Shown one piece after another: positions 57,084 to 59,960 of a stretch of DNA of 64,000 bases. Within the stretch, counting starts at the first letter, position 1. Each line of letters begins with the position of its first letter. The notes beneath the pieces are model-generated. The model was given only the letters and a program-made list of their open reading frames with translations. It was not told the DNA's origin and searched no databases. The translations under genes were made by a program, and so were the position numbers. The DNA comes from an uncultured Hellea sp. (GTDB taxonomy: Bacteria; Pseudomonadota; Alphaproteobacteria; Caulobacterales; Maricaulaceae), in contig CALLMD010000013.1 of the NCBI GenBank assembly GCA_938007935.1, forward strand, positions 20,912 through 84,911. The letters run 5' to 3'.

Positions 57084-58265
57084 CTACCCCAAACTCTGAG
57101 CCAATTTATCTGCCTCGGCGGCGGCGCAGAAGAGATGATAAAAGGTACTGGTCGGCATGACCTTGGAAATGATGTGGCCGTCGGGGTCGAGTTGATCAGC
57201 CCAGCCGCCTTTGACGGGCACATCCAGATAATATGTCATCAGCGCTCTAATCGCTTTGGTCGCATCCTCAAAATACTTAGTCTGCCCCGCAGCCGCTTGC
57301 GCGACTGAGGCTTTGATAAGTTCTGTTTGCGGCCAACTGCGCAGGGTCGGTTTTGACGGGCGACCATCTAGCTCCACCGCGTCACATAAAAGTCCGAGTT
57401 TCGGGTTCAGGCCGTAATCCATCCCGCCCTCAAAAAGCGCATTGGCATATGCGTCCATATTCTTGCCAGAGAGACGCTCATAGACCCGTAAGAGCCAGCA
57501 CCATTCCATCATATGCCCGGGTTCCGTTGGCCCGCCATCACCATTTTCGGGCGACCAATCAGGATTAAAAAACTCAAGCAAAGCTTTGCGCTCTGCGTCA
57601 AAGAAATAGGCTTCAAAAAGCACGAACATTTCATCCGCGCGGGCCAGATATGTCGCCTGCCCTGTCAGCTCATAAAGCGCCAGAAAGGATTCAAATAAAT
57701 GCATATGCGGATTTTGGCGGCGCTGTTTTGAAACAGGCGCGGGCAGAGCTTCATACCAACCGCCATTATCCGCCTTCACATGGCTATCAAGATATTTGAG
57801 CGTATCTTCCGCCACCTTTAAGGCCGCTTGATCGTCAAAGGCCTTATAACGCCACGCCCCCGCCAGCAGGACAAAGGCTTGGGCATAAGTATCGCGCATA
57901 TCATCATGCATAGCGCCTGTGCCTGTCACCAAATGGGCGCAGCCTTTTGGCCCATTTCCAATAAAATCACCGCCCGCAAATCCCGGCCCCGTTAAAAATC
58001 TCCAGACATGATCACAGGTGTCTTGACCGTCATACCATCCAAGGTCAGCGGCATGGGCATAGACATAAACAAAGCGCGCCTGCACCCGCACACGCCGCAA
58101 ATGATCCGCATCAGGCGAACCGTCCATAAAGAGATGCTCATAAGCCCCGCCGCGCGGGTCACAGCCATGTTCGGCCCAATAGGCCAAAGCCGTCTTACAC
58201 CACGCGGTAAAATCTGCACTCGCCGAAAGAAATTCTGTTTCAAAAGACATAGGGCCTTTAAGCAT
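57084..58265 (-). CDS. AGE family epimerase/isomerase (mannose-6-phosphate isomerase-like)
   Basis: RVRVQARF.Y, RRQNPHMHLFE, EPGHMMEW, RSWPQTE, STFYHL. Confidence 0.9.
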   Translation of the reverse strand: MLKGPMSFETEFLSASADFTAWCKTALAYWAEHGCDPRGGAYEHLFMDGSPDADHLRRVRVQARFVYVYAHAADLGWYDGQDTCDHVWRFLTGPGFAGGDFIGNGPKGCAHLVTGTGAMHDDMRDTYAQAFVLLAGAWRYKAFDDQAALKVAEDTLKYLDSHVKADNGGWYEALPAPVSKQRRQNPHMHLFESFLALYELTGQATYLARADEMFVLFEAYFFDAERKALLEFFNPDWSPENGDGGPTEPGHMMEWCWLLRVYERLSGKNMDAYANALFEGGMDYGLNPKLGLLCDAVELDGRPSKPTLRSWPQTELIKASVAQAAAGQTKYFEDATKAIRALMTYYLDVPVKGGWADQLDPDGHIISKVMPTSTFYHLFCAAAEADKLAQSLG

Positions 58266-58327
58266 AAAACGATAAATATAAACCTAAAGCCCTTTAGCAA
58301 AATTATAAGCAAACGTACCACCTATCC

Positions 58328-58599
58328 CTCATTACCGCACTTGATGCGGTAATCGATAAGAATTGCTGTCCTCGTCACTGTCATACCGACGCGGCTCGTG
58401 AGAGACGCCCGGTATCCATATCTCAGGCTTTATAATAAGTGTTGGCTTTCAAGGTATGGGCACCGGGTAAGTCTGCGACTTACAGCGGTGTGACTAAAAT
58501 ACGGTGTGACTAAAATATTGTCATCCCGGCCTCGCGCCGGGACCTAACGACAAATACCGTGTTTATGGATGGGTCCCGGCTCATGGCCGGGATGACAAT
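58328..58599. repeat. Cluster of GTCAT-type REP/REPIN-like palindromic elements
   Basis: ATTACCGCA/TGCGGTAAT (58331-58353); GTCATACCG...CGGTGTGAC doublet (58380-58494); ATTGTCATCCCGGCC/GGCCGGGATGACAAT 15-bp inverted repeat (58517-58599). Confidence 0.75.
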
Positions 58600-58743
58600 T
58601 AAAAAAATGAACTCTGTTGCGTTTGCTTCGCAAGCCACAACTAATCCTCATAAATTTCAAATTATTTCTATGCCAATTCAATCACTTATCAAAAAAACAA
58701 AGAGATTAATCCACGCTATCAAAAGCGGGTCTATATTTTGTTC

Positions 58744-59108
58744 ATTGTCGGGAAACCATCCCCGATAATATTAAGTTTCGATTGTGTGGACAGACTAACG
58801 CGTAGGTTTGTTATCAATTGGACGGTGAGACTGAGCGATTGGGGGTTACGACCCAATAAGTGCCGGGTCATTGTAACGTGGAAGCCAGACCGGCTGGGTC
58901 AGGTGGCGACAGCCATCGTACCGCTCAGACTTCGGGATTACCTAGTGCCGTTATTCTAAAATCATCGCCGCAGGGTCAGTGCCTTGTAAAACATTAAAAA
59001 ATCTTTGGTATCCATCAGGGTACCTGACTCTGCGGACTGTCCTATTTGAATTTTTCCAAATGAAAAAATCAACCAAGGCGTTCTTTTAGCGGATTTTTTT
59101 AAAATCCG
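58744..59108 (+). ncRNA. Candidate structured non-coding RNA of unknown family
   Basis: Many nested helices rich in G-U pairs, which favours the + strand; TATATT at 58732 as a possible -10; no convincing ORF. Confidence 0.4.
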
Positions 59109-59183
59109 AGTCTGTTTGCAGCACAGAACCGTCTATGCTGCGTTAAAGGTCATCCCCTGATCAGCTTAGAGCGTAACTATTAT

Positions 59184-59960
59184 ATGACACTTAAATCCGA
59201 TACATCCCGTCAATTCCTAAATCTCTTGGCCGCGCCGCTCATGTGGGTCCTCTCTACCCTGCCCCAGATCATAGATGTAGGCCGCACCGCCAAAGAGTTT
59301 TCTGATATCAATGATAGCTTGCTCGTTCCCTTTGGCGCCGCCTTTGCGATATGGTTTCCTATCTTTGTTGGCTGTTTGGGTTACGCCTATATCCAAGCCA
59401 AAGCGGTCAATAAAACGCGGGCGGTTTTTCGAGAGTGCGGGTGGTGGACGGGCATAGGCTTTTCCGCTGTGTGCGGCTGGGCGTTAATATCCACCTTTGC
59501 GCCGCCCGGTTTATTGCTTTGGGGGACCGCTTTGATATTTATTCCGGCGGTTTATTGTCTCGTCAAAGCCATGTTAATTTTAACGGCGCGAAAAGATGAG
59601 CTGAGCCGCGCCGAGAGATTTTGGGCCTTAGGCCCGATAAGCCTAATTGCGGGCTGGACCTCTATCGCGATATTTTTAAATTGGACACCGATTATTGCGG
59701 GAAGTTTTGGTAGCTCTGTGCCCATTATTATGCCCAATATTATAGGCCTCATTGCGGCCTTGATATTTGCGGTTATCATCATACCTAAGAGCGGCGGAAA
59801 CCTAGCCTATGCTTTCCCGATTTTATGGGGCCTTGCATGGCTCGCTTATGAGCAACTTATCAATACGGCAGAGGCGCCCATGATTGGATATGGGGCCATT
59901 ATTGGCTTCGTCCTTTTAGGCGTGGCCGTTATACTTTCGCGAAAGGGTGCAAAGGCTTAG
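59184..59960 (+). CDS. TspO/MBR-related multi-pass membrane protein
   Basis: EFSD.NDSLLVP.GAAFAIW..IF motif, about 8 TM segments, Trp-rich. Confidence 0.65.

Follow-up and report, generated by a model that had tools for sequence, protein, structure and literature searches.

The DNA analysed here, referred to throughout as the window, is a stretch of 64,000 nucleotides (nt) from an uncultured Hellea sp. (GenBank assembly GCA_938007935.1, contig CALLMD010000013.1, positions 20,912 to 84,911 of the forward strand), and the feature under study, one copy of a repeat that encodes a structured RNA, lies in a gene-free gap of 918 nt (58266-59183 in window positions). This gap is flanked on one side by a GlcNAc 2-epimerase-like gene on the minus strand and on the other by an open reading frame (ORF) of 258 amino acids (aa) on the plus strand (59184-59960), which stands directly 3′ of the repeat, has no Pfam match and is apparently a membrane protein. 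The repeat copy occupies 58640-59134 and contains no ORF of its own; its core is a predicted plus-strand transcript of about 300 nt (~58744 to ~59045). Our analysis reveals a new structured RNA that is multicopy, restricted to one bacterial family, preceded by promoter-like boxes, and closely tied to a novel small protein of ~90 aa, the gene for which is missing from the window copy.

An original prediction, made from the letters of the region, had described 58744-58955 as an orphan multi-helix RNA, undescribed and possibly derived from a mobile element. The letters are as it gave them, and its central claim stands, since Rfam has no match for the region and the structure is kept by compensatory changes. 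The word orphan had to be given up in favour of a multicopy family spread over five genera. The suggested mobile origin holds as well, the RNA forming the central part of a dispersed repeat that the covariance model matches 51 times in its genome, and the 3′ end moved from 58955 to ~59045.

A dispersed, modular repeat with promoter-like boxes

When the segment 58700-59000 was compared by BLAST with its own assembly (G000; 2.94 Mb in 42 contigs), 55 matches were obtained, while an nhmmer profile built from aligned copies gave 62 and the covariance model described below gave 51. Among the 62 profile matches, 24 are full-length and internal and ~25 abut contig ends, so the repeat is a major cause of the breaks in this assembly. 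The copies are 68-91% identical and mosaic, with stretches of 150-320 nt at 93-98% identity joined in differing combinations; they carry optional hairpin insertions, and their insertions and deletions disrupt every reading frame. A coverage profile and an alignment of 19-40 copies place the left boundary at ~58638-58642, and alignments place the right boundary at ~59134-59140; the two ends (..TCAATCCTC on the left, ..CCGTCTT on the right) are unrelated to each other.

The RNA core is framed by a 5′ and a 3′ module (Table 1), the latter being absent from the units of genus g20. Both modules also occur as solo copies without the core (G000 C1:132062-132159, C1:134356-134467, C10:98699-98762 and C24:70462-70518), which suggests that separable modules make up the Hellea repeat. 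A minimal form is seen in a related genus, where the complete genome G063 holds two copies, 96.6% identical and with unrelated flanks, that delimit a unit of 291 nt running from the AGAGAyTAATCC box to exactly ..GCGGGCUGUCC, the CUGUCC end.

The AGAGATTAATCC box, which forms the left edge of this minimal unit, and the CTATAT block are the best-conserved sequences outside the RNA and are kept in other species and genera. CTATAT, which matches the alphaproteobacterial σ70 consensus for the -10 element, is a likely -10 box and predicts a transcription start near 58743-58745. The original prediction had suggested that TATATT at 58732 could set a start near 58744, and the conservation of the block across copies and genera agrees with it. 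The 3′ end of the RNA probably falls within 59037-59058, in the tail or in the U-rich run that follows.

At the gathering score, the 4227 models of Rfam 15 matched only two tRNAs in the window, and a search of 58200-59250 at E <= 10 gave sub-threshold chance matches only.

A covarying RNA fold

The original prediction had proposed a comparison with shuffled controls, and by this measure the plus strand of 58744-58955 folds better than all of them: its energy is -75.0 kcal/mol, against -63.6 +/- 4.4 kcal/mol in 200 dinucleotide shuffles (z = -2.6, with 0 of 200 as good). The fold of the minus strand is unremarkable (z = -0.7).

For the comparative analysis, 41 copies from the window genome and its relatives were cut at conserved anchor blocks and aligned segment by segment, and 22 copies in which hairpin P3 has its short form were realigned to give alignment A1. 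On A1, a structure of nine helices and 55 pairs shows standard pairing in 94.9% of cells, compared with 80.2% when columns were shuffled and 38-43% when partners were slid. Double-sided changes occur at 30 of these pairs and amount to 201 cells, against 63 expected, values that none of 500 shuffles reached. RNAalifold, run blind on the same alignment, arrived at the same helices; 32 of its 54 pairs are compensated. This fold is kept by compensatory changes both among paralogous copies and across genera. Because several invariant G.U pairs would read C.A on the other strand, the plus strand is the functional one and the molecule is an RNA.

These data bear directly on whether the structure might act in single-stranded DNA, as do REP/RAYT (repetitive extragenic palindromic sequences and their associated tyrosine transposases) or the ends of IS200-type insertion sequences (IS), or might have no function at all. 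A dispersed repeat with no coding capacity would fit such an account, but the many conserved G.U pairs would not, and a multi-branch fold of 55 pairs goes far beyond what an HUH enzyme recognizes. No Y1/HUH gene was found in the six Hellea genomes searched, and the covariation excludes chance. We therefore regard this explanation as scarcely credible.

The RNA comprises a 5′ stem-loop region (P1 and P1b/P2), a three-way-junction domain with two arms, and a 3′ domain (Table 1). P1 is present only in Hellea-type copies, being missing from genus g20 and from the variants of H. balneolensis. For P1b, the longest helix that forms within a copy has a mean of 8.9 base pairs, compared with 5.1 when the strands are taken from different copies; only 2.8% of such non-self strand pairs reach the self mean.

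Several helices of the original prediction reappear in this model. Its 5′ hairpin (P1) and the hairpin GGTGGC-gaca-GCCATC (P6) both show compensatory changes among copies. The hairpin at 58838-57 keeps its stem, ATTGGG/CCCAAT, which also shows compensatory changes, and loses its supposed UACG cap, since the loop is the conserved GGUUACGA. The helices GACGGT/GCCGTT, CTGAGCG/CGCTCAG and GCCGG/CCGGC did not hold: they are paired in 68.9% of cells against 68.7% in shuffled controls, with 2 double-change cells, and covariation sets Pc, P2b, P4, P5a and P5b in their place. A pseudoknot between TAGGT and ACCTA is likewise not conserved, as ACCTA occurs in one subtype only and TAGGT belongs to a local hairpin as its 3′ strand, while the threefold GGGTCA is indeed present in the window copy but is confined to its subtype.

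Table 1. Features of the window copy and of the RNA that it encodes, in window positions
Feature	Position	Strand	Description
5′ module of the Hellea-type repeat	58640-58700	+	First AATCCTC box at 58643-58649; conserved TTCAA..CTTATCAAAAAA stretch (per-column conservation)
AGAGATTAATCC box, with second AATCC motif	58701-58712	+	Upstream promoter-like element; conserved in the genome's copies and in relatives
CTATAT, likely -10 box	58731-58736	+	Most conserved block outside the RNA, in copies and relatives
Hairpin P1	58744-52/58761-69	+	Minimum-free-energy fold; compensatory change TTGTC/GATAA <-> TCATC/GATGA
Stem P1b	58777-84/58815-22	+	Encloses hairpin P2 and the 5′ strand of P0 (GGACAG, 58788-93)
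Local hairpin P2 (candidate)	58791-96/58805-10	+	Weakly supported; two sequence types misaligned
Three-way-junction domain, core	58823-58967	+	Pair counts on A1 and RNAalifold
Closing helix Pc, CGGUGA/UCAUCG	58823-28/58962-67	+	Closes the three-way junction; covariation
P2b, arm 1, GACU/GGUC	58829-32/58866-69	+	Perfect two-position covariation: GAGAC..GUC, GAGAU..AUC, GAGGC..GCC, GAGGU..ACC
Internal loop of arm 1, UGAGC/GUGCCGG		+	Between P2b and P3
P3, arm 1, stem ATTGGG/CCCAAT	58838-43/58852-57	+	Conserved loop GGUUACGA
P4, arm 2	58872-78/58949-55	+	Covariation
P5a, arm 2, CCGG/UCGG	58890-93/58932-35	+	Covariation
P5b, arm 2, CUGGGU/GCUCAG	58894-99/58923-28	+	Covariation
P6, arm 2	58902-07/58912-17	+	Covariation
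3′ domain	58968-59035	+	Segments A (CAGGGU), B (GCCUUG), D (CAGGGU) and C (ACUCUG)
Outer helix A:C	58968-76/59027-35	+	Nine pairs; 98.5% of cells paired; 5 covarying pairs
Alternative helix A:B	58971-75/58982-86	+	Five pairs; 100% of cells paired; 3 covarying pairs
Conserved GUAAAACA	58987-58994	+	Within the 3′ domain
Hairpin H	59007-13/59018-24	+	Within the 3′ domain
Tail CUGUCC (59037-42), then U-rich run	59037-59058	+	Minimal unit in G063 ends exactly at ..CUGUCC
3′ module of the Hellea-type repeat	59059-59134	+	Variable A/U-rich hairpin; hairpin CGGAUUUU-UUU-AAAAUCCG (59090-59108), terminator-like and covarying in relatives; then ..CAGCACAGAACCGTCT

A switch-like 3′ domain and natural variants

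The 3′ domain is the most widely conserved part of the RNA family. Its segments can pair in several ways: helices A:C, A:B and B:D all hold through double changes (for example, CAGGG/CCUUG to GAGAG/CUCUC), B:D being the covarying pairing chosen by RNAalifold, and D:C is another alternative. Since these pairings exclude one another and all covary, they bear the signature of a conformational switch. In addition, the tail CUGUCC can form a long-range pairing, P0, with GGACAG in the loop of P1b, crossing that stem. P0 is paired in 93% of cells, but its columns are almost invariant; it is supported by GGGC/GCCC variants in the mini copies of H. balneolensis and in genus g22, and by an extension to GGGAC/GUCCC in genera g20 and g27. 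We retain P0 as a likely but weakly supported pairing that is compatible with the data.

Deletion and insertion variants preserve the same core and reveal which parts can be dispensed with. In the 160-nt versions of H. balneolensis the P4-P6 arm is swapped for a hairpin of 13 nt, and a variant in genome G264 carries a 170-nt insertion in the 3′ hairpin. Genus g27 retains the 3′ domain together with a different 5′ domain; in three of its loci (L220-L222) the tail reads GCGGA-UGAG-UCCGC, followed by a U run, a small terminator-like hairpin that competes with the outer 3′ helix.

Distribution across genomes

Of 401 genomes of the order, 18 were positive with a covariance model of 226 positions (R1). 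Sixteen belong to the window's family (f1) and represent five genera; the two outside the family are marginal (E ~0.004), and a further 400 alphaproteobacterial genomes, drawn from 308 genera, were all negative. The number of matches per genome is highest in the window genome (51), followed by G264 (27), H. balneolensis (G012; 19), G372 (15), G098 (9) and G063 (7), and genera g22 and g23 hold one copy of the RNA per genome. The RNA is thus a multicopy family, with 1-51 copies per genome, limited to five genera of a single family. By BLAST, the repeat was found in 9 of 17 Hellea genomes, and a pattern scan of named genomes detected it only in Hellea balneolensis DSM 19091, several Hellea metagenome-assembled genomes and one such genome of Algimonas. 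A pattern scan of viral sequences gave chance matches only, with no covariance-model match in the 80 loci tested, and no plasmid match for the repeat was obtained.

A small protein gene linked to the RNA

Among the neighbours of the G000 copies taken alone, no gene family recurs. When the G000 flanks were clustered with the neighbours of another 58 copies, taken from four genomes, one small ORF of ~90 aa was found to recur shortly after the RNA, in the same orientation. Its product carries the invariant motif TKLAIEKARLAKLE..P.YTRYEDMPPPSPE(E/D), and at the minority of copies that have it, the ORF follows the RNA at a distance of 70-170 nt. The window genome contains five copies of this ORF, four of which lie 70-100 nt after an RNA copy (C11:2196-2471, C31:153799-154065, C10:215-475 and C8:40282-40010), and the same order of RNA and ORF is found in G063, G264 (2 loci) and G235. 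A collection of 5.8 billion proteins yielded only seven other clusters of the small protein; metagenome contigs were fetched for four of the seven, and each of the four carries the RNA, scored at 152-197 bits, 50-130 nt ahead of the ORF. The small protein is almost never found without the RNA. It has no Pfam, NCBIfam or PHROG family, and its AlphaFold2 model consists of two helices (residues 14-35 and 55-88) with a mean predicted local distance difference test score (pLDDT) of 73.

Two further candidates for a partner gene were rejected. The ORFs beside the single RNA copies of g22 and g23 are unrelated to each other, and the g23 ORF, although similar by eye at its N-terminus to the YTRYEDMPPPSPE family, was matched by tblastn at g23 loci only.

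An alternative reading takes the RNA for a cis-regulatory leader, such as a riboswitch or attenuator, which in the window would control the co-oriented 258-aa ORF through the alternative 3′ helices as expression platform. The RNA has a conserved fold and alternative helices; these mutually exclusive, covarying helices adjoin a U-rich tract, complete units invariably have the RNA on the 5′ side of the small ORF, as its neighbour, and the window copy shares the orientation of the ORF that follows it. Nevertheless, the gene that a full copy faces is convergent in ~18 of 26 cases, and this speaks against a general role as 5′ leader. A consistent downstream gene, the ~90-aa ORF, is present at a minority of copies, and the ORF-less copies have no recurrent downstream family. 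In the window itself, ~140 nt that include the terminator-like hairpin separate the RNA from the 258-aa ORF, and this ORF is unrelated to the small one. We consider such a cis-regulatory role rather improbable.

Small genes of the GIY-YIG nuclease family were also observed 0.2-2 kb from several RNA copies in three genomes and one metagenome contig, the clustering of neighbours having placed them near 5 loci, with inconsistent spacing and orientation (G000 C23:15210-15665 and C31:151134-151541; L272, L274, L277 and L299). As such genes are multicopy, their proximity is probably due to chance.

Other repeats in the gap

Three further repetitive features precede the RNA repeat in the gap. The first is a REP-like palindromic repeat of ~115 nt (58376-58498; GTCAyACCGnCGC...GCGGYGGTGTGAC), of which the genome has ~12 copies; 10 of these, which can have either orientation, sit 5-30 nt beyond the left boundary of an RNA repeat, the distance in the window being ~140 nt. 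At the end of this element and before the next lies an exact tandem duplication of a 16-nt unit (CGGTGTGACTAAAATA x2, 58486-58517). The third, between the REP-like element and the RNA repeat, is an unrelated, near-perfect hairpin repeat of 82 nt (58517-58598; TTGTCATCCCGGCC...GGCCGGGATGACAA) with 7-8 copies in the genome, which gives a spurious match to mir-1295 (34.6 bits, against a gathering score of 100).

A proposed selfish module and its alternatives

As the best explanation of these observations, we propose, with a confidence that we would put at about even, that the window copy is an ORF-less derivative of a selfish module composed of an RNA and a small protein. A complete unit would consist of the promoter, the RNA and the small protein gene, and copies like that in the window would be non-autonomous derivatives multiplied as selfish DNA. 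The RNA fold would act in cis, with only those copies propagating whose fold is intact, and selection for propagation would preserve it. The RNA would most probably serve as the binding partner of the small protein or as a regulated leader, and the 3′ domain may act as a conformational switch beside the U-rich tract, gating read-through into downstream sequence. A bolder proposal makes the RNA the active component of a new kind of mobile element, propagated by ribozyme or RNA-guided chemistry with the ~90-aa protein as its sole dedicated cofactor and with no conventional transposase, nuclease or reverse transcriptase; this we think quite unlikely.

A number of results weigh against a selfish module. 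The repeat resembles a classical miniature inverted-repeat transposable element (MITE) in being short (290-600 nt), non-coding, dispersed and present in high copy number, but neither terminal inverted repeats nor target duplications were detected in 20-39 copies or in the 96.6% identical pair of G063, and a classical MITE was rejected on these grounds. No empty site with joined flanks was found across the genus for five copies, synteny not being conserved. The small ORF was not found at 18 fetched loci of H. balneolensis, which has 19 RNA copies; one divergent G000 paralogue (C10:7648-7415) has no RNA upstream, and the predicted helical hairpin of the protein lacks a catalytic motif, a family and a fold match in the Protein Data Bank (PDB). 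Enzymes of mobility are missing as well. TnpB (PF07282) was absent in 21 genomes, while control genomes gave matches, and without such co-occurrence an IS200/IS605 omega RNA was rejected. The Y1 HUH transposase (PF01797) was absent from the window genome and from five more Hellea genomes, some with and some without the RNA, which led us to reject an IS200/IS605 element, a palindrome-associated transposable element (PATE) or a REP-RAYT system. Reverse transcriptase (PF00078, RVT_1) was absent in G000 and H. balneolensis; this, with the lack of a group II match in Rfam, speaks against a group II intron, a retron or another RNA dependent on reverse transcriptase. Genes of the IS110 type are missing in 9 of 14 other RNA-bearing genomes, all outside Hellea, and the IS110 loci that do exist have no end boxes, nhmmer match, shared sequence or ends in common with the repeat. 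Finally, in two g23 species (L058 and L059) the single copy occupies one shared locus and is followed by a ~135-aa ORF without Pfam match and by the L-serine dehydratase gene sdaA; this indicates vertical inheritance there, and the copy resembles an ordinary resident gene.

The case of g23 lends itself to a different account, in which the RNA is a host-beneficial family acting in trans, as a regulatory small RNA (sRNA) or a protein sponge, whose duplicated genes are each transcribed from a conserved promoter. In its favour, almost all copies preserve both the promoter-like boxes and the fold, a syntenic single copy stands beside sdaA in two species, and no transposase is associated. Such a family would, however, have to account for 51 copies that break the assembly, for a patchy presence in the genus (8 of 17 Hellea genomes lack the repeat by BLAST), and for sharp units accompanied by solo modules; no sRNA family is known to reach such copy numbers. 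On balance, we judge a host sRNA family unlikely.

The remaining explanation is a guide RNA of a known RNA-guided mobile element: the repeat would be a non-autonomous copy bearing either the bridge or seek RNA of IS110/IS1111 or the omega RNA of IS200/IS605, to be mobilised or used by a recombinase or nuclease encoded elsewhere, in the way that ISPpu9 serves MITEPpu9/ssr9. IS110-type genes (DEDD recombinase, PF01548) are present in the window genome, as a single copy, and in H. balneolensis; of the 12 REP-like palindromes, 10 lie next to the repeat, and REPs are frequent targets of IS110 elements (PMC12288879). The RNA also ends exactly at the boundary of the G063 unit, in the manner of omega RNA scaffolds. 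On the other side stand nine RNA-rich genomes, including the complete G063 and the near-complete G264, in which IS110 genes are missing, the lack of termini or sequence shared between IS110 loci and the repeat, and the absence of TnpB and Y1 TnpA described above. Neither HEARO nor any other Rfam model was matched. Complementarity between the element and the flanks of a copy was no better than with the flanks of other copies. Without correlated genes, shared termini or guide-like complementarity, an IS110/IS1111 bridge or seek RNA and an IS110-dependent MITE were both rejected, and a guide RNA of this kind is disfavoured and very unlikely.

Broader searches for a partner enzyme gave the same picture. 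An all-against-all comparison of the ORFs of G000 found no transposase among its multicopy genes, and no large ORF recurs beside the copies, although no profile search aimed at IscB was made. The original prediction had asked whether homologues sit beside nucleases, reverse transcriptases or transposases, and among the enzymes searched for (TnpB, Y1 transposase, reverse transcriptase and IS110 recombinase) none is linked to the repeat.

Comparison with known systems

The closest published parallel to the proposed selfish module is MITEPpu9, the ssr9 sRNA gene module of Pseudomonas putida, which is mobilised by the IS110-family element ISPpu9 (PMC12288879). Like the Hellea repeat, it places a small-RNA gene with its own promoter (in our case a predicted one) on a short non-coding repeat with stand-alone copies, is associated with REP-like palindromes, and has been read as a hitch-hiking selfish gene (PMC12288879). 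MITEPpu9, unlike the Hellea repeat, shares end boxes with its IS110 element, and it has 8 copies (PMC12288879). The Hellea repeat lacks these defining IS110 links: it has no IS110 ends, occurs in many RNA-rich genomes that are free of IS110, reaches up to 51 copies and encodes a much larger, multi-domain fold.

Other families share particular traits with the repeat. HEARO/IscB omega RNAs and TnpB omega RNAs are large, multi-helix, pseudoknotted molecules with many copies, most of them without an ORF and few adjoining one. The Hellea RNA is likewise large and multi-helix (its crossing P0 helix being weakly supported), with many copies and an ORF beside few, and in at least one genus the RNA of this family reaches the unit boundary. 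In contrast to those systems, there is no Rfam HEARO match, TnpB or Y1 TnpA, IscB not having been searched for, and the partner ORF encodes a ~90-aa helical protein rather than a nuclease.

The pneumococcal BOX, Neisseria Correia/NEMIS, enterobacterial ERIC and rhizobial RIME elements are intergenic, mosaic and modular repeats with structured transcripts that exchange modules. The Hellea repeat is also intergenic, mosaic and modular, with variable copies. However, those elements form hairpins of a simple kind, 100-300 nt long, and have neither a dedicated promoter nor a partner ORF. The RNA of the Hellea repeat has 55 pairs, a three-way junction, single-stranded blocks that are conserved and a 3′ domain resembling a switch. 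A further likeness is offered by group II introns that lack an ORF and are mobilised in trans, in that many non-coding copies keep their fold through compensatory changes and few carry an ORF, as is the case for the Hellea RNA. Unlike these introns, the repeat has no Rfam match or reverse transcriptase, its ORF lies downstream of the RNA and not inside it, and its copies are intergenic with promoter-like boxes of their own.

Large bacterial RNAs with many covarying helices but no assigned function are rare, and earlier cases from mobile repeats, HEARO and the 5′ RNAs of IS110, were later recognised as the guides of new genome-editing systems. Hellea assemblies owe much of their fragmentation to the repeat, and modelling it would allow their intergenic regions to be annotated. 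The cultured host Hellea balneolensis DSM 19091, with its 19 copies, makes the role of the RNA directly testable.

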